Below are positions 2,397 to 30,373 of a stretch of DNA of 40,605 bases, one piece after another (the stretch's first letter is position 1; each line of letters begins with the position of its first letter). The stretch is from a bacterium (GTDB lineage Bacteria; Omnitrophota; Gorgyraeia; Gygaellales; UBA12090): NCBI GenBank assembly GCA_004299495.1, contig SCPY01000069.1, forward strand, positions 1-40,605, written 5' to 3'. The notes beneath the pieces were generated by a model, which made no database searches, had not been told where the DNA came from, and was given only the letters and a program-made list of their open reading frames with translations. The position numbers were made by a program, and so were the translations under genes.

Positions 2397-3091
2397 GGAA
2401 TAAAGCTTACCTCCCTCTATTTTTTCTGTTCATCATTCACTGCTCACTGCTCACTGTTTGTCGCGCTCAACAGGATGGGGGGATTTCTCAAGAAGAAAAA
2501 GTGCAAAAGGCAAGGGAGCATTACGCCTCCGGAAAGGCCCTTCTTGAACAGGGAGACTACAAGGGCGCGGACGCGCAATTTAAAAAGGCGCAAGGCCTCC
2601 TTACCCAGGGCTCGTCATTACCGGCCCCGGAGGGGCTAGGCCAGCCGGCCGGCAGGCAGGCAATCCCTGCCGAGATCGCTTCGCCGCCCGCGGCTCCCGG
2701 CAATGGCCGCGCATCCGATACCCTTTCTGTTGCCAGGAAAGCCTGGGAAGCCGCCAAAAGAGGCGCGCCCGAGGAAGCTATATCATTTTATCAGCAAGCG
2801 ATTAATACCTGCGCGCCAAACTCCGACCTTTATTACAACCTGGCGCTTGAGTATCTCAAAACCAAGCGCTTCAGGGAAGCTGCCCAGGCTTTTAAGAGAG
2901 CCGTTCAGCTCAATCAGCGGGATAATGACGCCTATTTTAATTTAGCCGTATTGTATGAAAGCTACCTTAACGATAAAAAACAGGCCCTGAGTTATTACTC
3001 CCAATACCTAAAATACGCCTCCCCGGGCGATAATACCGCCGAAACAAAAGAATGGGTGCGCCAGATTAAAAAGGAATTAAAAGCGCGATGA
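2393..3091 (+). CDS. Secreted TPR-repeat protein (PilF/PilW/MshN-like pilus assembly factor)
   Basis: Signal-peptide-like N-terminus. TPR-like repeats (YYNLALEYLKTKRFREAAQAFKRAVQLNQRDNDAYFNLAVLYE). Translationally coupled on both sides. Confidence 0.55.
   Translation: MRNKAYLPLFFLFIIHCSLLTVCRAQQDGGISQEEKVQKAREHYASGKALLEQGDYKGADAQFKKAQGLLTQGSSLPAPEGLGQPAGRQAIPAEIASPPAAPGNGRASDTLSVARKAWEAAKRGAPEEAISFYQQAINTCAPNSDLYYNLALEYLKTKRFREAAQAFKRAVQLNQRDNDAYFNLAVLYESYLNDKKQALSYYSQYLKYASPGDNTAETKEWVRQIKKELKAR
2437..2457 (+). repeat. Heptanucleotide tandem repeat (TCACTGC x2 plus TCACTGT) in the TPR protein signal-peptide coding region
   Basis: Direct reading of 2437-2457. Confidence 0.85.
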
Positions 3092-4905
3092 AAGATGAAG
3101 AACTGCAAAATTTATTATTGAGCTGCGGCCTGCTTACCCCGGAAGAATTAAACAGGGCGGCCGAAGAAACCAAGAAGCTCAAACGCCCCCTGGAAAAGAT
3201 AATTGTGGCAAACCGCCTTTTATCCCAGAGCGCGCTTTACGAAACCGTTGCCAAACATTTAGGGTTTAATTATATCAGCCTGTCAAGCCTTCAGGCAGAC
3301 GAAGCGCTGCTCAAGATATTGCCGGCGGCGCTTGCCCGGCAAACGCTGGCAGTGCCGCTGAAGCTGGAAAACGGCACCCTGCACATCGCGATGGCCGATC
3401 CCGCCGACTTATACGCCATTGACCAGATACAACTGCAGACCGGCATGCCTTTAGAGGTATATCTTTCCGGTCCAGATGAGGTTAATGAAGCGCTCAGCCG
3501 GATTTATGCCGAGCGCGCGGCCTTTGGGGATTTCCTGGCCGGCATCGCCAAAGACCAGCCGCAGGCAAAAACCAAGGACGCGGCAACCGACGGCACGTCT
3601 ATAATTAAGCTCGTGGATTTGATTATCGCCCAGGCGGTAAGAGACCATGCCTCGGATATACACATCGAGCCGGAGCAGGAGGTAACCCGCGTCAGGTTCA
3701 GGATTGACGGCATACTCCACGAAATACCCTCTCCTCCAAAATCGTGGGAAGCGGCGATAATTTCCCGCGTCAAGGTTTTATGCGGTATGGATATCGCGGA
3801 AAATCGCGTTCCCCAGGACGGCCACTTTCAGGCGAAGGTTGACGATAAGATAATTGATTTTCGCGTCTCCACCATCCCCACCATTTACGGGGAAAATCTG
3901 GTAATGAGGATTCTGGACACCGCCTCGGTAATGATCGGCCTTGAGAAATTGGGGTTTGCCACCTACGAGGAAATGAAAAAATACGAGTCTCTTCTTTCCA
4001 AGCCCTACGGGATAATCCTTTCTACCGGCCCCACCGGAAGCGGCAAAACCACCACCCTTTATTCCGCGCTTATGCGGATAAACACTATAGATAGAAACAT
4101 TATCACTATTGAGGACCCGGTAGAATACCGCCTGGGGCTTATCCGCCAGATACAGGTTAATCCTAAGGCGGGAATTACCTTTGCCAGCGGCCTGCGGGCA
4201 ATCCTGCGCCAGGACCCCGACGTGATTATGGTCGGCGAAATCAGAGATCTGGAAACCGCCACCATTGCCATTCAGGCGGCGCTTACCGGGCATTTGGTGT
4301 TTTCTACCTTACACACTAACGACGCCCCTTCCGCGATTACCCGTTTAGTAAATATGGGTATTGAGCCGTTTCTGATTGCCGCCAGCCTTATCGGTGTGAT
4401 GGCCCAGCGGCTGGTAAGAATCATCTGCCCTGCCTGCAAGGAGTCCTATACCCCCTCCAGGGCGCTTTTGGAAAGGTGGGGCCTGAAAGACAGAGGAGAT
4501 ATCCTCTTATACCGCGGCAAGGGCTGCGAGCAGTGCAAAGGCACCGGCTATTGGGGCAGAATGGGCGCGTTTGAGCTGATGGCTATTGACGACGAATTAA
4601 GGGAAATGATTATCGGGGAGGGCTCAACGGTGCTTTTGCGCAAAAAGGCCCAGGAAAAGGGTATGCGCCTTTTGGCCGAAGACGCGGTAGCTAAGGCCCT
4701 AAAAGGCGTTACCACTATTGAAGAAATCGCCAGGGTCTGCGAGGAGCATATAGAGTTAAAACCCGCGGAGCAGGCGAAGGTAGAGCCTTACGCCAAAGGC
4801 GCTGCTGCCGATACAAAGCCACCGGCCCAAAAGGTTGAGGTAAAGTCCTCAGACTTTGAAGAATACCAAAAACGTGTAGCCAGCTGGTTAAGCAGGAAAA
4901 AATAA
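3088..4905 (+). CDS. GspE/PilB/MshE-family secretion ATPase with N-terminal T2SSE_N domain
   Basis: Walker A GPTGSGKTTT; Asp/His boxes (MVGEIRDLETA, TGHLVFSTLHTNDA); tetracysteine CPACK...CEQCKGTGY; N-terminal T2SSE_N-like 140 aa. Confidence 0.9.
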   Translation: MKDEELQNLLLSCGLLTPEELNRAAEETKKLKRPLEKIIVANRLLSQSALYETVAKHLGFNYISLSSLQADEALLKILPAALARQTLAVPLKLENGTLHIAMADPADLYAIDQIQLQTGMPLEVYLSGPDEVNEALSRIYAERAAFGDFLAGIAKDQPQAKTKDAATDGTSIIKLVDLIIAQAVRDHASDIHIEPEQEVTRVRFRIDGILHEIPSPPKSWEAAIISRVKVLCGMDIAENRVPQDGHFQAKVDDKIIDFRVSTIPTIYGENLVMRILDTASVMIGLEKLGFATYEEMKKYESLLSKPYGIILSTGPTGSGKTTTLYSALMRINTIDRNIITIEDPVEYRLGLIRQIQVNPKAGITFASGLRAILRQDPDVIMVGEIRDLETATIAIQAALTGHLVFSTLHTNDAPSAITRLVNMGIEPFLIAASLIGVMAQRLVRIICPACKESYTPSRALLERWGLKDRGDILLYRGKGCEQCKGTGYWGRMGAFELMAIDDELREMIIGEGSTVLLRKKAQEKGMRLLAEDAVAKALKGVTTIEEIARVCEEHIELKPAEQAKVEPYAKGAAADTKPPAQKVEVKSSDFEEYQKRVASWLSRKK

Positions 4906-9743: not shown

Positions 9744-9771
9744 TTGACAGAGGCAATGCCTGTGGTATACT
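9744..9771 (+). promoter_or_regulatory. Sigma70-type promoter for the riboswitch leader
   Basis: TTGACA (9744-9749), 16-nt spacer, TATACT (9766-9771). Confidence 0.6.
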
Positions 9772-9823
9772 TACAGCAGATAAAGCAAATTATGCACTCT
9801 GACGAGCGGTAAGAAAAAATATA

Positions 9824-9915
9824 CCATTGAAAAAAGCAAACCACCCGTAAGGGTGGGGCGCAAAGCCTCCGGTCCGCAAAAGTAGCTGTAGCGGAAAGCG
9901 GGGCTGCCAAGGGCA
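9824..9915 (+). ncRNA. c-di-GMP-I (GEMM-I) riboswitch aptamer, boundaries approximate
   Basis: GCAAACCA, then hairpin CCACCC-GUAA-GGGUGG (GNRA loop), then GGCGCAAAGCCUCCGG ... GUAGCGGAAAGCGGGGCUGCC. This closely parallels the V. cholerae Vc2 aptamer core as recalled. Confidence 0.75.
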
Positions 9916-9927
9916 TAAGAAAAGAAT

Positions 9928-9958
9928 AAAGCCCCTGGCAAGAAGAAGGGCTTTTTTT
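9928..9958 (+). terminator. Intrinsic terminator forming the riboswitch expression platform
   Basis: AAAGCCC / GGGCTTT stem with a 13-nt loop and a T7 run. GCCAAGGGC (9906-9914) can pair with GCCCCTGGC (9931-9939) as an alternative structure. Confidence 0.55.
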
Positions 9959-10014
9959 GTGCCCCTGTACAATTTATGAACGTGCGGTTCGCGCAATGGA
10001 TAAAGGAGAAAACG

Positions 10015-11448
10015 ATGAAAAGGCAAAATTATCTTCAAAAGAGGAGATGTCCCGTTCTTATCGCTATGTTCATGTTCTCCGCGGTTATTGCCTGTGGCGC
10101 CGAAGAATCCATCACCGTAACCACCTATTATCCCTCTCCTTATGGGGTGTATAGCGAGATGCGCCTGTATCCCAAGAATAACCCTACTGCCTGCGATAAC
10201 AACCAGAGGGGGCTGATGTATTATGACCTTGCCGATAACAGGCTTAAGGTCTGTAATGGAACGCCTCCTTATCAAGACATCGGAGGAGGCTTCTGGGCAG
10301 CCAGCCCCTCAGGCCTTAATGATATCTACTATATTAATTCCGGAAACGTCGGCATCGGGACAAATAGCCCCGGGCAAAAACTGGTAGTTCAGGCCGCGGA
10401 TGCCTCATCTTCAACAGGAACCGGCCCAACGATATATCTTCAGTCAGATGCTGCTGCGACATTGAATAGGGGCGGTTCGGTGCTTTTCGGCGATACCGGA
10501 ACAGCCAGGGCAATGATAAAAGGGGCTTACGAAGGCGCGGGGAGTTCCGGATATTTGGCTCTCTCCACCAAAACATCCGCGAATGTGATGACAGAGGCTC
10601 TTAGGATTGACAGCGGCGGCAATATCGGCATCGGGACGCCGGGCCCGACCTCAAGGCTTCATGTGAATGGTAAGTCAAGGTTTAATGATCGGGTGGGAAT
10701 ATATTTTGGCCCGGACGATATTCCACCTGGGTGGGGAGGCGGCTTGGTGACCTGGGATGTTGTGGCCAAGGCCCAAATTAGAGCTAACTCGCTCTGTTTA
10801 GGCGGAAGCGTAGGCGGAAACGATTTAGGCACCTGCCGCAACAGTTGGCCAGGAGCAGCAAATGTCCTCACAAGCACCAATGGCCAGTATGCTCTGACTA
10901 TGCAGGATGATGGTAACGTTGTTCTCTACACGCCGTGGGGAGCTCGGTTTACAACAGGTACCTATAGCGGGAAATATGGGCCCTACTATCTCATGAGCGG
11001 CAACGGCAGGTATTATTTCGTTATGCAGGATGATGCCAATCTGGTGATTTATGATAACTGGACAGGGCAGCCGATATGGGCCACGAGTTGGAGCCCTGAT
11101 GGAGACTGGAGGCCATGGTTGTCAGATGCCAGGCTAAAGAAAGATGTTGCTCTTCTGGAAGGCGCATTGGCGAAGGTGATGCGGCTACGCGGAGTTGCGT
11201 TTTCCTGGAAGGATACTACGCATGGCGAAGGCCCGCAAGTCGGGTTGATCGCGCAAGAGGTGGAAAAGATTTTTCCAGAAGCAGTAACCACCGGAGGCGA
11301 CGGCTTCAAGCGCGTAGACTATGGACGGCTCGTTTCGCCCCTCATTGAGGCGATTAAGTCGCAGCAGATTGAGATTAAAAAGCAGGGAGAATCCATTCAA
11401 CAACTGCAAGAGGAGCTTAATAAGCTAAAATCAGAAAGCAAGATTTGA
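10015..11448 (+). CDS. Secreted (possibly lipoprotein) fibre protein: tail-fibre-like repeats, bulb-type lectin domain, C-terminal S74 intramolecular chaperone
   Basis: ATG at 10015 follows an AGGAG RBS. Signal peptide has a lipobox-like VIAC. Repeats GNVGIGTNSPGQKLVV and GGNIGIGTPGPTSRLHVNG. Two QxDxNxVxY motifs (QDDGNVVLY, QDDANLVIY). The tail SDARLKKDV...GLIAQEVEKIFPEAV...VDYGRLVSPLIEAIK is typical of Peptidase_S74. Confidence 0.75.
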   Translation: MKRQNYLQKRRCPVLIAMFMFSAVIACGAEESITVTTYYPSPYGVYSEMRLYPKNNPTACDNNQRGLMYYDLADNRLKVCNGTPPYQDIGGGFWAASPSGLNDIYYINSGNVGIGTNSPGQKLVVQAADASSSTGTGPTIYLQSDAAATLNRGGSVLFGDTGTARAMIKGAYEGAGSSGYLALSTKTSANVMTEALRIDSGGNIGIGTPGPTSRLHVNGKSRFNDRVGIYFGPDDIPPGWGGGLVTWDVVAKAQIRANSLCLGGSVGGNDLGTCRNSWPGAANVLTSTNGQYALTMQDDGNVVLYTPWGARFTTGTYSGKYGPYYLMSGNGRYYFVMQDDANLVIYDNWTGQPIWATSWSPDGDWRPWLSDARLKKDVALLEGALAKVMRLRGVAFSWKDTTHGEGPQVGLIAQEVEKIFPEAVTTGGDGFKRVDYGRLVSPLIEAIKSQQIEIKKQGESIQQLQEELNKLKSESKI

Positions 11449-11466: not shown

Positions 11467-11988
11467 ATGCGCCGAGTTATCGTAGTAAGCTGGCTGGCGG
11501 TTTTTCTCTGCATATCACAATCCTATGCCCAGGAAGTCCAGAAGAGCGCGCCCCGTAATCCAGAAAAATCCCAGCAGGCTTATAAGCAGATGCAGGAGAA
11601 TTACCAGCAGGGATTCAAGCGTGTGCAGGAAGAAATGCGTAAACGCCAGGAGCAGGAGCTTGAGCAGTTAAAACAAACTAACCCGCAAGTTTACCAGGAA
11701 CGTAAGGGCGCAATTGAGCGCCAGGATAAATTCCGGACCATCCTCTCTGATTTTCAAGCGGGAAAGCTCACGGCCGAGCAGGCTGAGAGCCAGCTTTTCC
11801 CTCTTATGAAATCGGAAATGCGCTACGAATTGGAAGGCCTCAATGAGCGGATTGCCTCACTTGAGAAACAACTGGATCTTCTAAAGAAAGCTAAGCAGGA
11901 TCCCGACCTGTTCGTTCGTCACCGGGTCAGGATTATGCTGGGTAAAGAGAAAGCGGCCCCGCAACAACCACCGAATTGGGGATATTGA
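11467..11988 (+). CDS. Secreted Q/E-rich helical protein, possibly Spy/CpxP-like
   Basis: Signal peptide (LAVFLCISQSYAQE); coiled-coil-like Q/E/K-rich body; a single LTAEQ (LTXXQ) motif. The functional call is weak. Confidence 0.4.
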   Translation: MRRVIVVSWLAVFLCISQSYAQEVQKSAPRNPEKSQQAYKQMQENYQQGFKRVQEEMRKRQEQELEQLKQTNPQVYQERKGAIERQDKFRTILSDFQAGKLTAEQAESQLFPLMKSEMRYELEGLNERIASLEKQLDLLKKAKQDPDLFVRHRVRIMLGKEKAAPQQPPNWGY

Positions 11989-12195: not shown

Positions 12196-12387
12196 ATGGT
12201 GAAATACGAGTTTTTTACCGCCGTCCAGGCGGCAAAAGAATTAGGCATCTCTAAACAGACGCTCTTCCGTTACGAAAAAAAGAGGGTCTTTCCTGCCCCC
12301 AGGCGCAACCTCATTAACCGCTGGCGCCAATACAGTTATGAGGATATAAACAAATTAAAAGAGATAATGCGAGGAAGTATTGGATAA
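12196..12387 (+). CDS. Small MerR/excisionase-type helix-turn-helix DNA-binding protein
   Basis: 63 aa. AAKELGISKQTLFRYEKKRVFPAP matches the HTH_17/MerR-like pattern. Confidence 0.65.
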   Translation: MVKYEFFTAVQAAKELGISKQTLFRYEKKRVFPAPRRNLINRWRQYSYEDINKLKEIMRGSIG

Positions 12388-15320: not shown

Positions 15321-16997
15321 ATGGCGGAAATCGGTTTTAAAAAAATAGGTGAAATTCTTATAGAGCAGGGATATATCAACCAATCCCAGCTTGCGCAGGC
15401 CCTGGAAGAGCAGAAGCTCACCGGCGAAAAGATAGGTGAGGTTTTAATCAAAAAGGGCTGGTTAAGCCAGGAGGAGCTGGACTTTGCCTTAAGCTCCCAG
15501 AAGGGCATTGCCCGCTTTGACCTTTCCAATTATATTATTGAATCGGCGGTTATCAAGCTGGTGCCGGAGGAGTTCGCGCGCAAGTATATGCTTATCCCGG
15601 TATTTTTAGTGGAGAATACCCTCACGGTGGCGATGTCCGAACCCTCAAACGTCTTTATTATTGACGAGCTGCAGCGCGTCACCAAGCTTATTGTTGAGCC
15701 GGTCCTGGCAGGAGAGCTGGATATCAAAAAGGGCCTTGACCAATATTACGGGGGCTCAGGCACCCTCGCGGAAATTATTTCCGGGTTAGATAAAACCAAG
15801 CTCGCCGAAGGCGAAAAATTAGGAGAAGAGGCGCCCATCATTAAAATCGTGAATTATCTTATTCTGCAGGCGGTGCAGGTAAAGGCCTCGGATATCCACA
15901 TAGAGCCGGAGGAGAAATTTTTGAATGTCCGCTACCGCGTGGACGGGATCCTCCGCCGCCAGCCTCCCCTGCCCAGGGACCTGGCGAGCGCGATTATCTC
16001 GCGTTTTAAAATTATGTCCGGGTTAGATATCTCGGAGAAACGCGTTCCCCAGGACGGCCGCATACTGATGAAATTCGGCGCCAAGGATATTGATTTTCGC
16101 GTCTCTACCTGTCCCACCCTGCACGGGGAGAATGTGGTCTTGAGGATCCTGGACAAAGGCGGCCTGGTGCTGGGCCTTGAGACCCTGGGATTTCCTGAGC
16201 GCGAACTAAAACTGTTCCAGGAGCTGATTCGTTCACCTTACGGCATCATCCTGGTTACCGGGCCTACGGGCAGCGGAAAAACCACCACTCTTTATTCCGC
16301 CTTACAAATACTGAATAAAGAAGATGTAAACATTATGACCGTGGAAGACCCCGTGGAATATCAGTTTCCCGGCATACGCCAGGTGCATGTCAATGTGAAG
16401 GCGGGGCTTACCTTTGCCAGCGCCCTGCGTTCTTTTTTAAGGCAGGACCCGAATATCATTATGCTCGGGGAAATCCGCGACCGAGAAACCGCGGAAATTG
16501 CCGTACAGGCGGCGCTCACCGGCCATCTGGTGCTTTCCACCCTGCATACCAATGATTCGCCCTCTGCGTTTAGCCGGCTTATTGATATGGGGGTTGAGCC
16601 TTTTCTGGTTTCGTCGTCCTTACTGGGGGTGCTTGCCCAGCGATTAATCAGGAAAGTCTGCGAGAAATGTAAGGTGTCGTTTAGCCCTACGGAAGAATCC
16701 TTAAGAAATCTCGGCCTGGAAGACAAAATAGGCAAAGATATCAAATTTGCCAGGGGAGGCGGCTGTAAATTGTGCAACTCAAGCGGATATAAGGGGCGCC
16801 TGGGAATTTATGAGCTCCTTAAGGTTACCCCGGCCATCCAGGAAGTAGTCTTAAAGAGGTCTTCGGCGGATGACATCCGGGCCCTGGCGATAAAAGAAGG
16901 GCTGGCGCCCTTAAGGCAGGGCGCCCTGGAAAAACTTATGTTAGGGCTGACCACCCCTGAGGAGGTGATGCGCGTTACCTTGGAATCCGGCCAGTAA
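15321..16997 (+). CDS. pilB: PilB/GspE-family assembly ATPase with tandem MshEN-type motifs
   Basis: Walker A GPTGSGKTTT; MLGEIRDRETA; TGHLVLSTLHTNDS; tetracysteine CEKCK...CKLCNSSGY. N-terminus has KIGEILIEQGYINQSQLAQALEEQ and KIGEVLIKKGWLSQEELDFALSSQ. Confidence 0.9.
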   Translation: MAEIGFKKIGEILIEQGYINQSQLAQALEEQKLTGEKIGEVLIKKGWLSQEELDFALSSQKGIARFDLSNYIIESAVIKLVPEEFARKYMLIPVFLVENTLTVAMSEPSNVFIIDELQRVTKLIVEPVLAGELDIKKGLDQYYGGSGTLAEIISGLDKTKLAEGEKLGEEAPIIKIVNYLILQAVQVKASDIHIEPEEKFLNVRYRVDGILRRQPPLPRDLASAIISRFKIMSGLDISEKRVPQDGRILMKFGAKDIDFRVSTCPTLHGENVVLRILDKGGLVLGLETLGFPERELKLFQELIRSPYGIILVTGPTGSGKTTTLYSALQILNKEDVNIMTVEDPVEYQFPGIRQVHVNVKAGLTFASALRSFLRQDPNIIMLGEIRDRETAEIAVQAALTGHLVLSTLHTNDSPSAFSRLIDMGVEPFLVSSSLLGVLAQRLIRKVCEKCKVSFSPTEESLRNLGLEDKIGKDIKFARGGGCKLCNSSGYKGRLGIYELLKVTPAIQEVVLKRSSADDIRALAIKEGLAPLRQGALEKLMLGLTTPEEVMRVTLESGQ

Positions 16998-23746: not shown

Positions 23747-25075
23747 ATGAATTTGCTTGAATCCTGGACGCAAGCCAAAGGCCTTCTTTTAGAAAATATC
23801 GGTAAGCCCTCTTACGAGGCCTGGATTAACCGCCTCAGCGCTCACGAAAACTCTCCCGGCGTCCTGTGCCTAAGCGCCCCCGATGAATTCTCCAAAGAAT
23901 GGGTGCGCGCGCACTACTCCGGAACAATAGAAAGCATCCTCAAAGACGTAACCAGAAGGCCTGTCAGGATAGAATTCTCCATTCAGGAGGAGGCGCCGCC
24001 AAACACAGCCGCTTTACCCGCGGCCGGCAGCCATCCCGAAAAAACTGCAGCCTCACCCGGCTTAAACCCCCGCTATACCTTTAACAATTTCGTGGTTGGC
24101 CCGTCCAACCGATTTTCCCATGCCGCCGCGATGGCGGTAAGCGAATCCCCGGCCAAGGTGTATAACCCGCTTTTTATTTACGGCGGCGTGGGCCTGGGGA
24201 AAACACACCTGATGCAGGCAATCTGCCACGCGATTCTGGAGCGCGGGGGCCGCGGCGTAAAAATATGCTATATCCCGTCGGAAAAATTCACCAACGAGCT
24301 TATTGACGCCATACAGCACCACTCCACCGCGCGCTTCCGGCAAAAATACCGCGGGGTGGATGTTCTGGTGATTGACGATGTGCATTTTATCGCCGGGAAA
24401 GAATCCACCCAGGAGGAGTTTTTTCACACCTTCAACACGCTCTACGACGCCCATAAACAAATTATCATCTCTTCGGACCGCATCCCCAAAGACATCTCAA
24501 ACCTGGAGGACCGGCTGGTGTCGCGCTTTGAGTGGGGGTTGGTTACCGACATACAGCCGCCGGACTTTGAGACACGGGTCGCGATCCTCAAGAAAAAAAT
24601 AGAACATGAGCCCACCCCTATTCCTAACGACGTTCTCTTTTTTATCGCCCAGTCGGTTAAAACAAATATCCGCGAATTGGAGGGGGCGCTAATCCGTGTT
24701 TTGGCGTATTCTCTCCTGGAAAACAAACCCATCAGCCTGGAATTAACCAGAGAGGTGTTAAAAGATTTTGTAAAAGAAAATAATAAAACTATCGGCATTG
24801 ACTTAATCCAAAAAGAGGTGGGGGCCTTTTTTAATCTCGCCCAGTCTGAAATAAAGGGCAGCCGGCGGGGCAGGAATGTGGTTTTCGCGCGCCAAGTGGC
24901 GATGTATCTATCGCGGGAGCTGACAGATTTTTCCCTGCCTGAAATCGGGGGATTTTTTGGCGGCAAGGACCACACCACGGTGCTGCACTCGTATAATAAA
25001 ATTAAGTCCGGGTTAGTTAAGGACATAAAGATGAAGGCGGATATAGAGAGAATTATCCAGAATATTAAACAATGA
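23747..25075 (+). CDS. dnaA: Chromosomal replication initiator DnaA
   Basis: YTFNNFVVGPSNRF, Walker A GGVGLGKTHL, VLVIDDVHF, and C-terminal domain IV (FGGKDHTTVLHSYNKI). Confidence 0.95.
   Translation: MNLLESWTQAKGLLLENIGKPSYEAWINRLSAHENSPGVLCLSAPDEFSKEWVRAHYSGTIESILKDVTRRPVRIEFSIQEEAPPNTAALPAAGSHPEKTAASPGLNPRYTFNNFVVGPSNRFSHAAAMAVSESPAKVYNPLFIYGGVGLGKTHLMQAICHAILERGGRGVKICYIPSEKFTNELIDAIQHHSTARFRQKYRGVDVLVIDDVHFIAGKESTQEEFFHTFNTLYDAHKQIIISSDRIPKDISNLEDRLVSRFEWGLVTDIQPPDFETRVAILKKKIEHEPTPIPNDVLFFIAQSVKTNIRELEGALIRVLAYSLLENKPISLELTREVLKDFVKENNKTIGIDLIQKEVGAFFNLAQSEIKGSRRGRNVVFARQVAMYLSRELTDFSLPEIGGFFGGKDHTTVLHSYNKIKSGLVKDIKMKADIERIIQNIKQ

Positions 25076-26330: not shown

Positions 26331-30373
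<4,043 letters not shown>

Follow-up and report, generated by a model that had tools for sequence, protein, structure and literature searches.

Does the leader ahead of a fibre gene in an uncultured Omnitrophota bacterium sense cyclic di-GMP, and would the bound ligand switch that gene on or off? The bacteria of the phylum Omnitrophota are tiny and may depend on hosts, and no riboswitch work on the phylum was found in the literature that we searched. The leader lies in a contig of 40,605 nucleotides that was analysed at its full length (the window). An earlier note, made from the sequence alone, had described it as a c-di-GMP-I (GEMM-I) riboswitch with a terminator/antiterminator platform, and every sequence feature that the note listed was found where it had been placed. 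On balance, we think it likely that this RNA is truly a cyclic-dinucleotide riboswitch of class I (GEMM-I fold), acting as an OFF switch through transcription termination. As such it belongs to an already known class, and a single nucleotide of its ligand pocket departs from that class. The locus comprises the following features:

9744-9771 (+): sigma-70-type promoter (TTGACA 9744-9749, 16 nt, TATACT 9766-9771, extended -10 TG)
9778-9823 (+): 5' leader before the aptamer, about 46 nt, conserved in the aligned orthologs
9824-9913 (+): GEMM-I (c-di-GMP-I fold) aptamer, from the cmscan match and RNAalifold of three orthologs
9824-9829 with 9908-9913 (+): aptamer P1, CCAUUG with CAAGGG, five pairs and one A.G mismatch
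9835 (+): equivalent of Vc2 G20, a ligand-pocket nucleotide; A here, directly 5' of GCAAACC (cmscan alignment)
9836-9842 (+): the sequence GCAAACC
9836-9837 with 9860-9861 (+): short aptamer helix, G9836-C9837 with G9860-C9861
9841-9856 (+): aptamer P2 hairpin, CCACCC-GUAA-GGGUGG, with a GUAA loop
9857-9872 (+): the sequence GGCGCAAAGCCUCCGG
9862 (+): equivalent of Vc2 A47; A, canonical (cmscan alignment)
about 9864-9905 (+): aptamer P3
9898-9908 (+): the sequence GCGGGGCUGCC
9907 (+): equivalent of Vc2 C92; C, canonical (cmscan alignment)
9906-9914 with 9931-9939 (+): antiterminator hairpin, GCCAAGGGC with GCCCCUGGC, 8 of 9 pairs, dG -12.1 kcal/mol
9928-9958 (+): intrinsic terminator, AAAGCCC 9928-9934 with GGGCUUU 9948-9954, U7 at 9952-9958, -8.2 kcal/mol
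10004-10017 (+): ribosome-binding site AAGGAG (10004-10009) and conserved ATG (10015), from the sequence
10015-11448 (+): secreted fibre gene, 477 aa (Pfam PF13884, E 1.2e-17; PDB phmmer; motifs)
11467-11988 (+): co-transcribed ORF, 173 aa, with signal peptide and coiled coil

The aptamer and the gene it precedes

Two related contigs of Omnitrophota (L009 and L137) carried the same leader; they were reached via orthologs of the upstream MshEN-PilZ gene, and the protein neighbouring the leader was 96% (L009) and 88% (L137) identical to that of the window. Covariation was drawn from these orthologs because no GEMM leader was present where the closest homologs of the fibre are encoded (L004 and L006-L008). 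Searching GTDB representative genomes with the fibre protein itself returned only distant lectin-domain matches, and there were no fibre homologs at 120 metagenomic loci that had the same aptamer core. An exact-sequence look-up of the window MshEN-PilZ protein found nothing on record, and that of the window PilZ protein led to a Logan contig (L138). The promoter, which the earlier note had called near-consensus, agreed with the consensus at 11 of 12 positions; both hexamers and the TG were invariant in L009 and L137, while spacer and flanks differed in the leader alignment. Transcription would start near 9778.

When the whole window was scanned with cmscan, positions 9826-9912 (+) matched clan CL00126, with RF03167 scoring 62.0 bits (gathering score 59, E 2e-12), which is far above chance for the GEMM-I clan. 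A second CL00126 match, scoring at least its own gathering score, was masked by clan competition and is almost certainly RF01051. A score below the RF01051 threshold (gathering score 35) had been proposed earlier as grounds for rejecting the class, and as far as the scan output goes this did not occur: the clan match reached a gathering score, that of RF03167, while the score for RF01051 itself was hidden by the competition, so that only the RF03167 score is displayed for the window aptamer. The orthologous aptamers scored 69.9 bits (L009) and 64.3 bits (L137). RNAalifold of the three leaders reproduced P1, P2 and P3, with 31 pairs, 2 of them compensatory, several wobble-preserving and few broken. 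The compensatory pairs were a C-G to U-A change in P2 and a G-C to A-U change in P3, and the GNRA loop that caps P2 varied from GUAA to GUGA. Fold and clan match thus both agree with the GEMM-I (c-di-GMP-I) class named in the earlier note. We also considered a phage origin of the aptamer, which was rejected after a scan of IMG/VR with the aptamer core pattern (0 matches).

The first gene behind the leader was, as had been noted, a lectin-fibre gene, on the evidence of PF13884, PDB phmmer matches and motifs. Its start at ATG 10015 aligned with the L009 start, whereas an upstream ATG at 9976 was unconserved, and the Logan gene call yielded the same 477-aa product. The protein has a signal peptide and, over ~130 aa, an N-terminal domain that is common to paralogs in L004, L006 and L007. 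Its stalk is a Gly-rich beta-helix, its bulb-type lectin domain spans about residues 284-360 and contains QDDGNVVLY and QDDANLVIY, and its S74 intramolecular chaperone carries SDARLK at residue 370. Matches in the PDB included agglutinin 1npl (3.9e-10), Bdellovibrio Bd2133 (8ond, 8e-8), pyocin L1 and the T4 long tail fibre (6f45); B_lectin was undetected by Pfam even at E up to 1, and the lectin was detected by the PDB sequence search. With its signal peptide, ~130-aa N-terminal domain, beta-helix stalk and SDxxxK chaperone, the features by which MAT fibres are defined (PMC10769870), the product is predicted to be a MAT-like S74 fibre. No family matched the 173-aa ORF that follows; an ORF 44% identical to it adjoins the fibre genes in L004, and it is also present in L005. 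On the other side of the leader, the adjacency to PilZ and MshEN(T2SSE_N)-PilZ genes pointed out earlier was borne out, and the c-di-GMP-binding motifs were intact: RxxxR and D/NxSxxG are retained in the PilZ proteins, and MshEN-type motifs in the T2SSE ATPase. Riboswitch and fibre gene together form a lineage-specific insertion, and the type IV pilus locus that received it has many PilZ and MshEN domains.

The ligand pocket and position 20

In Vc2, A47 intercalates between both ligand bases, and the second guanine of the ligand is Watson-Crick paired to C92 (PMC6140456); what G20, A47 and C92 do, and what follows from G20A, is described in PMC6140456 and PMC6456294. All three nucleotides were present in L009 and L137. 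In the window, A47 and C92 were retained and position 20 was A, so the parallel with the Vc2 core drawn in the earlier note held for the fold, GCAAACC, A47 and C92 and failed in the pocket at position 20, where the A had been overlooked. Since G occupied this position in both orthologs and in 119 of 122 aptamers with the same core, A20 is a recent, derived G-to-A change in the window copy, arising after the split from relatives with a 96%-identical neighbouring protein. It is a single-base feature in a metagenome-assembled genome whose closest relatives carry G, and might instead stem from an error of assembly or sequencing, or represent a minor allele, in a population that is truly canonical G20 c-di-GMP-I. 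This is extremely unlikely, as A9835 was reproduced in a separate assembly (Logan contig L138, SRR8426592) with an identical GAAAAAAGCAAACC, although SRR8426592 may be the same read set as that behind the genome, and an adjacent U-to-A difference and further substitutions point to real divergence from L009.

A20 is the signature of GEMM-Ib aptamers, which are cGAMP-responsive or bispecific (PMC6140456), so it cannot simply be assumed that the leader responds to c-di-GMP with the sensitivity of Vc2. With G20A, Vc2 binds c-di-GMP at 53 nM instead of in the picomolar range and binds cGAMP more tightly than before, at 120 nM, and the natural A20 aptamer Cbe 1-2 favours c-di-GMP (30 nM versus 463 nM for cGAMP; PMC6140456). 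Across published G20A and natural A20 RNAs, c-di-GMP is still bound, more weakly (30-700 nM), and 3',3'-cGAMP is also accepted. By analogy with Vc2 G20A and the natural A20 aptamers, A20 should cut c-di-GMP affinity by orders of magnitude in the window scaffold and admit 3',3'-cGAMP; binding of both ligands at tens to hundreds of nM, as in these RNAs, is the best available predictor of how the window RNA would behave. Because both orthologs carry G20, the ancestral ligand of the leader was presumably c-di-GMP, and the richness of the locus in PilZ and MshEN receptors makes c-di-GMP most probably the physiological ligand still.

Alternatively, G20A might have reassigned the leader to 3',3'-cGAMP altogether, as a cGAMP-selective GEMM-Ib switch through which the fibre gene answers cGAMP and not c-di-GMP. 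The A at position 20 fits such a switch, as cGAMP recognition requires A20 and A20G returns Gmet_0970 to c-di-GMP (PMC6456294, PMC6140456). We nonetheless consider it very unlikely. G20 in the closest two leaders points to a single, recent substitution within a scaffold for c-di-GMP, the same substitution makes Vc2 bispecific rather than cGAMP-selective and Cbe 1-2 prefers c-di-GMP, the neighbouring genes encode c-di-GMP receptors, and none of the ORFs on the 40.6-kb contig was found to encode a GGDEF, Hypr GGDEF or CD-NTase protein; the predicted OFF polarity is also at odds with the Geobacter ON switches. A broader proposal is that the window captures a ligand-specificity change in the wild, in which one G-to-A substitution makes the leader of a fibre gene bispecific or cGAMP-responsive in Omnitrophota. 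We regard it as distinctly unlikely; if true, it would be a first step of evolution from GEMM-I to GEMM-Ib outside Geobacter, accompanied by re-tuning of terminator and antiterminator, and the affected leader would belong to a prey- or host-binding fibre gene.

The expression platform and its polarity

The terminator/antiterminator platform described in the earlier note was recovered in nascent folds, with the antiterminator forming part of the minimum free energy (MFE) structure when transcripts end at 9940-9958. This hairpin takes up C92, the P1 3' strand and the 5' arm of the terminator; its use of the first two makes it incompatible with the ligand-bound aptamer. In the window, the mutually exclusive states came to -44.0 kcal/mol (P1 with terminator) and -51.3 kcal/mol (antiterminator). 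The AAGGGU/GCCCUU pairing equivalent to the antiterminator was kept in L009 and L137, and the three-helix arrangement that couples the platform to P1 was conserved across the three orthologous leaders. Covariation in the alternative helices was read from these three leaders only. A long hairpin at 9911-9964 (-21.9 kcal/mol) that overlaps P1 was rejected as a terminator, as no U-tract follows it.

The OFF polarity proposed earlier would follow from this geometry, in which the P1 3' strand is shared between P1 and the antiterminator. The promoter at 9744-9771 would start transcription. Were no ligand bound as the polymerase passed ~9940, the P1 3' strand and C92 (9906-9914) would pair with 9931-9939, and this antiterminator would block the GCCC/GGGC terminator with its U7 tract, so that the fibre gene (10015-11448) and the 173-aa ORF would be transcribed. 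If ligand were bound, P1 (9824-9829/9908-9913) and C92 would be locked into the aptamer, 9931-9939 would be freed, the terminator would form with 9948-9954 and transcription would halt at the U-tract. C. difficile is known to have class-I OFF switches that use termination (PMC6366702), and the polarity in vivo is probably OFF here as well.

The same aptamer could also serve as an ON switch or in translational control, the ligand raising fibre expression. ON switches are found among Geobacter GEMM-Ib and some class-I RNAs (PMC6456294, PMC6366702), including class-I switches before adhesins (Bc2, B. thuringiensis), and c-di-GMP usually favours adhesion. Moreover, in L009 and L137 the aptamer with terminator was already the thermodynamic minimum without ligand, which means that the OFF model requires kinetic control. 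We searched for a terminator strand overlapping the aptamer, as an ON architecture would have, and found none; aptamer and terminator can coexist, and the aptamer has a single competing helix, which is in competition with the terminator too. The ribosome-binding site lies ~50 nt past the terminator and has no conserved sequestering helix. Control in the ON direction or at translation is thus quite unlikely, and we retain the OFF reading.

Within the OFF model, the platform of the window has drifted from those of its relatives. Its terminator is weaker (-8.2 kcal/mol, against -12.6 in L009 and -11.7 in L137) and its antiterminator stronger (-12.1, against -7.9 and -9.3, respectively). The L009 terminator hairpin has 9 pairs and was detected by a simple terminator scan; that of the window was missed because its 13-nt loop exceeds the 8-nt maximum of the scan. 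A20, the weaker terminator and the stronger antiterminator would all favour less ligand-dependent repression, that is, a higher threshold or leakier fibre expression. Taken further, these three ways in which the window differs from L009 and L137, independent of one another and all derepressing in direction, might mark a decaying or functionally relaxed riboswitch whose pocket, terminator and antiterminator changes leave the fibre essentially constitutive in the window lineage. Non-functional, less conserved c-di-GMP riboswitches are known in C. difficile (PMC6366702). Such decay seems unlikely here, however, as the remaining aptamer is intact and still above the gathering score, all changes in paired regions preserve pairing, the U7 tract and terminator core are kept, and G20A RNAs bind c-di-GMP at tens of nM. 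The finding extends cyclic-dinucleotide riboswitches of a validated class to Omnitrophota and would tie second-messenger control to a lectin-tipped, phage-like fibre resembling the prey-recognition fibres of Bdellovibrio. The pair of G20 leaders (L009 and L137) and the A20 window copy, otherwise near-identical, form a natural experiment, and this set could reveal how a pocket mutation and platform drift affect ligand range and threshold.

Comparison with known systems

The closest counterparts of the regulated gene were the mosaic adhesive trimer (MAT) fibres of Bdellovibrio bacteriovorus (S74 subgroup). Like them, the window fibre has a signal peptide, the conserved ~130-aa N-terminal domain, a stalk built as a Gly-rich beta-helix (8ond, E 8e-8), a tip domain for adhesion and the SDxxxK motif in its S74 chaperone. 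MAT fibres are ~1000 aa, whereas the window fibre is much shorter (477 aa) and carries a bulb-type lectin tip. Riboswitch control of MATs is unreported in PMC10769870, where the term 'c-di-GMP' is absent.

Among riboswitch families, the c-di-GMP-I-GGC variant (RF03167) gave the top-scoring covariance model for the window aptamer, above its gathering score. Weinberg et al. in 2017 are said to have used 'GGC' to name the three pocket bases. The RF03167 consensus is CGCGAAGCC, with G at the A47 position, whereas the window has CGCAAAGCC, with A, and thus lacks the variant nucleotide. Approximately half of the ordinary A47/G20 aptamers that we tested also matched RF03167 best, and because canonical A47 aptamers exceed its gathering score, a best match to this model is not diagnostic. 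The variant assignment was rejected on both grounds, and the lesson for annotation is that a best RF03167 match does not prove variant status and that pocket nucleotides should be read directly.

The Geobacter GEMM-Ib switches (Gs1761, Gm0970) resemble the window in having A at position 20 on a GEMM-I fold and control by a transcription terminator. They differ in that A20 in the window is a single recent substitution, unconserved among the orthologous leaders, in that they are ON switches while the window is predicted to be OFF, and in that no cGAMP synthase is visible on the window contig. Vc2 G20A and natural A20 RNAs are likewise c-di-GMP-type scaffolds with A20; Vc2 G20A was engineered, whereas the A20 of the window is a natural change amid near-identical wild leaders.

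Many of the 120 metagenomic relatives have a GAAA-type 11-nt receptor in P3, which the P3 of the window lacks, and its loop is GUAA. The window most resembles c-di-GMP-I itself (RF01051; V. cholerae Vc2 and Clostridioides difficile Cd1), in the three-helix fold with GNRA-capped P2, the core of GCAAACC and ACGCAAAGCC type, the A47 and C92 equivalents and the location ahead of a surface or adhesion gene, in its 5' leader. With the class-I switches of C. difficile it would also share a terminator-based OFF platform. It differs from RF01051 in the A at position 20, in its Omnitrophota host and in having a lectin-tipped S74 fibre as its target.

Leader elements and family assignment of the aptamer

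The leader features described in the earlier note were all found in the window sequence, upstream of the fibre gene.

Features of the leader and of the genes that follow it
9744-9749 and 9766-9771, + strand: promoter, TTGACA, 16 nt, TATACT, with TG upstream of TATACT; 11 of 12 consensus positions
9824-9829 with 9908-9913, + strand: possible P1, CCAUUG with CAAGGG
9836-9842, + strand: GCAAACC, preceded by an A-rich joining segment
9841-9856, + strand: hairpin CCACCC-GUAA-GGGUGG (P2)
9857-9872, + strand: GGCGCAAAGCCUCCGG
9898-9908, + strand: second hairpin, closed by GCGGGGCUGCC
9906-9914 with 9931-9939, + strand: alternative helix, GCCAAGGGC with GCCCCUGGC, complementary at 8 of 9 positions
9928-9934 with 9948-9954, + strand: terminator, AAAGCCC with GGGCUUU, then U7 at 9952-9958
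10004-10009 and 10015, + strand: Shine-Dalgarno AAGGAG and ATG
11467-11988, + strand: secreted coiled-coil ORF of 173 aa, following the fibre gene

When the whole 40.6-kb window was scanned against all 4227 Rfam families, only three matches reached gathering level. Two were tRNAs and the third, at 9826-9912 (+), belonged to the c-di-GMP-I clan (CL00126; 62.0 bits, E 2e-12), with RF03167 (c-di-GMP-I-GGC, gathering score 59) as its model. One further overlapping CL00126 match, lower-scoring but reaching its own gathering score, was masked by clan competition. This was almost certainly RF01051 (c-di-GMP-I), because the gathering score of that family is only 35 and every test aptamer with RF03167 as best match had such a masked match. 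Judged by the masked hit, the aptamer on present evidence does not fall below the RF01051 gathering threshold, under which the earlier note would have abandoned its riboswitch reading.

The 'GGC' in the name of RF03167 reportedly stands for three pocket bases, as attributed to Weinberg et al. in 2017. Assignment of the window to this variant was rejected, as it carries the parental CGCAAAGCC core where the RF03167 consensus reads CGCGAAGCC in the cmscan alignment. We also evaluated 20 metagenomic aptamer hits from 19 loci (one with two aptamers), 19 of the 20 having parental CGCAAAGCC. RF01051 and RF03167 were each the best match for about half of them, and a best match to RF03167 does not discriminate variant from parental aptamers. 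Aptamers with G20 and A47 (Vc2 numbering; A47 lies in CGCAAAGCC), found in a subset of loci L017-L058, often exceeded the RF03167 gathering score and took that model as best match; Rfam clan competition will therefore over-call the 'GGC' variant in automated annotation.

A lectin-fibre cassette inserted in a pilus locus

DnaA (23747-25075) was identical to NCBI TAN62310.1, and its named relatives at 60-72% identity were all Candidatus Omnitrophota. All genes lay on the + strand and included two type IV pilus/T2SS-like clusters (secretins, T2SSE ATPases with MshEN N-domains, T2SSF, pilins and PilM/PilO), dnaA, dnaN, gyrB, gyrA and pyrimidine biosynthesis genes. GyrB (26624-30373, 1249 aa) contained an intein between its GyrB and Toprim domains (Pfam Intein_splicing, about residues 444-868); GyrB of the related locus L012 was 809 aa. 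Directly upstream of the leader were genes for a histidine kinase, a PilZ protein, a response regulator and an MshEN-PilZ protein. In both PilZ domains, RxxxR and D/NxSxxG are intact and spaced as expected. Two PilB/MshE-like ATPases each carried an MshEN N-domain. In the ATPase at 15321-16997, the KIGExLIxxG...Q motif occurred twice in tandem, as is typical of MshEN domains that bind c-di-GMP; a simple pattern search found no such motif in the other (3088-4905). RNA and protein c-di-GMP receptors are co-localised, as had been proposed from the upstream PilZ genes.

Orthologs of the MshEN-PilZ gene formed a graded series across Omnitrophota metagenomes. A merR-like gene (window counterpart at 12196) came next in the relatives with 83% and 64% identity, and dnaA in one with 71%. 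By alignment, window 9727 to about 12120 is an insertion of about 2.4 kb that separates the MshEN-PilZ stop codon from the promoter of the merR-like gene and contains the leader promoter and riboswitch together with the fibre gene and the 173-aa ORF. The same insertion was present in L009 (JGI 3300045502) and L137 (Logan SRR22388038), whose MshEN-PilZ proteins are 96% and 88% identical to that of the window and whose aptamers scored 69.9 and 64.3 bits in Rfam. It was absent from L010 and L014-L016, and L012 ran straight to dnaA, without the whole second pilus cluster. At the loci of the few fibre-protein homologs, no GEMM element was found. In the three-way alignment of the window, L009 and L137, the promoter hexamers and TG were invariant while the flanks varied, which supports the promoter call. 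Covariation in homologous leaders, proposed earlier as a check, was present in these three: RNAalifold recovered P1, a two-pair helix, P2 and P3, with two compensatory pairs (C-G to U-A in P2; G-C to A-U in P3), G-C pairs replaced by G-U at several positions, and a P2 loop changed from GUAA to GUGA.

From the conserved ATG at 10015 the fibre ORF encodes 477 aa with a signal peptide; NCBI TAN62294.1 (490 aa) uses an ATG at 9976, but the later start, which has the Shine-Dalgarno, is the conserved one, since the upstream codon is ACG in L009. The N-terminal domain (about 130 aa) recurs in tandem paralogs of other genomes. One such locus (L006 1-8800, NCBI GCA_040961635.1) held at least five or six, most with S74 C-termini, an array resembling the multi-gene MAT family of Bdellovibrio, and no GEMM element. 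'Lectin-fibre' proved a fair description by sequence matching: Gly-rich repeats matched the beta-helix stalk of Bdellovibrio fibre Bd2133 (8ond, E 8e-8), a bulb-type lectin domain at about residues 284-360 with two QxDxNxVxY motifs matched daffodil and snowdrop agglutinins (E 3.9e-10) and also pyocin L1, and a Peptidase_S74 intramolecular chaperone followed (Pfam E 1.2e-17; SDxxxK motif SDARLK at 370). Pfam detected no lectin domain in the fibre. The same architecture is described for the S74 subgroup among the 'mosaic adhesive trimer' fibres of Bdellovibrio, fibres linked to prey recognition (PMC10769870); the window fibre is a much shorter version. The 173-aa protein matched no Pfam family. 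A 44%-identical counterpart lies beside fibre genes on an unrelated contig (L004 2510-2998; family size about 165-173 aa), and such proteins may be fibre-specific accessories or chaperones.

A ligand pocket with A at position 20

The Vc2 pocket is defined by three nucleotides: G20, paired to the Hoogsteen edge of one ligand guanine; A47, intercalated between both ligand bases; and C92, in a Watson-Crick pair with the second guanine (PMC6140456; PMC5888326). We located G20 as the unpaired base directly 5' of G21-C22 of GCAAACC, A47 as the first A after CGC in CGCAAAGCC, and C92 as the C just 5' of the P1 3' strand; the cmscan alignment gave A9835, A9862 and C9907. The Vc2-like reading of the earlier note thus holds for the GEMM-I clan and the A47 and C92 equivalents, but position 20 is A, and a canonical c-di-GMP-I aptamer was rejected.

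L009 (GAUAAAGGCAAACC) and L137 (GAAAAAGGUAAACC) both have G20 where the window (GAAAAAAGCAAACC) has A20. Because L137 is the outgroup to the window and L009, A20 appears to be derived in the window lineage. A JGI metagenome scan with the core pattern GCAAACCNNNCGNAAGNNNGGGGCGCAAAGCCNCCGG, leaving position 20 free, returned at least 120 loci; among those listed, L009 and the window, position 20 was G in 119 of 122, A in two (the window and L058) and C in one. L058 (2419-2504; RF01051, 77.3 bits) was the sole other A20 among the matches listed, and L019 (6367-6452) had the C. The Logan contig L138 (SRR8426592), from an independent assembly, was identical to the window through 9865, including A20, which is no assembly slip of the NCBI MAG, although SRR8426592 may be the MAG's own read set. 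L138 ends and L005, from the same accession, starts within the aptamer core with an 18-nt overlap (TAAGGGTGGGGCGCAAAG, window 9848-9865). This break suggests an assembly-graph branch, possibly from other copies of the conserved core in the sample.

G20 to A is the distinguishing change of the cGAMP-binding GEMM-Ib aptamers of Geobacter (PMC6140456), and A20G turns Gmet_0970 from cGAMP-selective to c-di-GMP-selective (PMC6456294). Wild-type Vc2 binds c-di-GMP at picomolar concentrations and cGAMP at 10 uM, and engineered G20A binds them at 53 nM and 120 nM. For Gs1761, the preference for cGAMP over c-di-GMP is only about threefold under the conditions of that study, the natural A20 aptamer Cbe 1-2 prefers c-di-GMP (30 nM) to cGAMP (463 nM), and P1 composition is a suspected contributor to selectivity (PMC6140456). 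By analogy with these published RNAs, A20 therefore predicts a gain of cGAMP binding and the loss of several orders of magnitude of c-di-GMP affinity, and would not by itself predict cGAMP selectivity. Full re-assignment of the riboswitch to cGAMP is possible but unsupported: the change is only one step old, single G20A changes yield bispecific RNAs, the genes of the locus are geared to c-di-GMP, and the 40.6-kb contig encodes neither a cGAMP synthase nor any other nucleotide cyclase.

Expression platform and predicted polarity

We folded nascent transcripts from the inferred start at 9778. For 3' ends from 9940 to 9958, the minimum-free-energy fold contained the 9906-9914/9931-9939 helix. This antiterminator uses C92, the P1 3' strand and also the terminator 5' arm, and, because the first two are consumed, it excludes the ligand-bound aptamer; aptamer and terminator do not overlap and can coexist. 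In this classic four-segment scheme, the P1 3' strand would pair with either the P1 5' strand or segment C, and segment C alternatively with segment D, followed by the U-tract. From this mutually exclusive pairing, ligand binding would favour termination. The same arrangement occurred in L009 and L137 (AAGGGU with GCCCUU; AGCCCUUA with UAAGGGCU, then U-tracts), and a consensus terminator scan called the L009 terminator. The terminator/antiterminator platform proposed earlier is thus borne out by folding and comparison, and its OFF polarity is supported by the pairing logic. Termination-type OFF control is the rule among functional class-I riboswitches of C. difficile (PMC6366702), and ON examples of class-I/GEMM-I switches exist too (PMC6366702; PMC6456294). 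We consider OFF the probable polarity here.

Predicted stabilities (kcal/mol)
Terminator: window -8.2; L009 -12.6; L137 -11.7
Antiterminator: window -12.1; L009 -7.9; L137 -9.3

In L009 and L137, aptamer plus terminator is the global minimum even without ligand, so regulation there would have to be kinetic, as in many OFF riboswitches.

Other features of the leaders were also seen. The A-rich J1/2 segment GAAAAAAGC (9829-9837, including A20) is fully complementary (9 pairs) to GCUUUUUUU (9950-9958), which lies within the terminator 3' arm and U-tract. This helix is present in the minimum-free-energy fold of the transcript ending at 9958, is improved by A20 relative to L009, and probably reflects nothing more specific than an A-rich joiner and a U-tract in one transcript. 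Between terminator and RBS, L009 has a second strong hairpin (2769-2795; 12 pairs, CCUUUCCCACC-UAC-GAGGUGGGGAAGG, then UUUCUCU); the window, 18 nt shorter in this region, lacks it. The leaders of L009 (2602-2630) and L137 (1503-1530) also contain a second promoter-like site, TTGACA-16/17-TACTAT, whose -10 overlaps the P1 5' strand; the window counterpart (about 9799-9827) has a degenerate -35, CTGACG.

The window thus differs from L009 and L137 in three respects, the A20 pocket mutation, a weaker terminator and a stronger antiterminator, all of which are predicted to reduce ligand-dependent repression. Complete loss of riboswitch function is possible, but substitutions across the aptamer preserve pairing, which argues that selection is still acting on it. 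Read most simply, the leader is a c-di-GMP OFF switch that has acquired a higher threshold or turned leaky in the window lineage; cGAMP cross-reactivity, incidental or adaptive, would accompany this.

The main gain over the earlier note is the corrected reading of the ligand pocket, together with the support that the orthologs lend to the OFF platform. This class of riboswitch, its A20 variants and OFF control through a terminator were known before. Only three points are new: the host phylum (Omnitrophota), the regulated gene, which encodes a MAT-like lectin fibre and sits with its riboswitch in a cassette inserted into a pilus locus, and the G20/A20 contrast between near-identical natural leaders.
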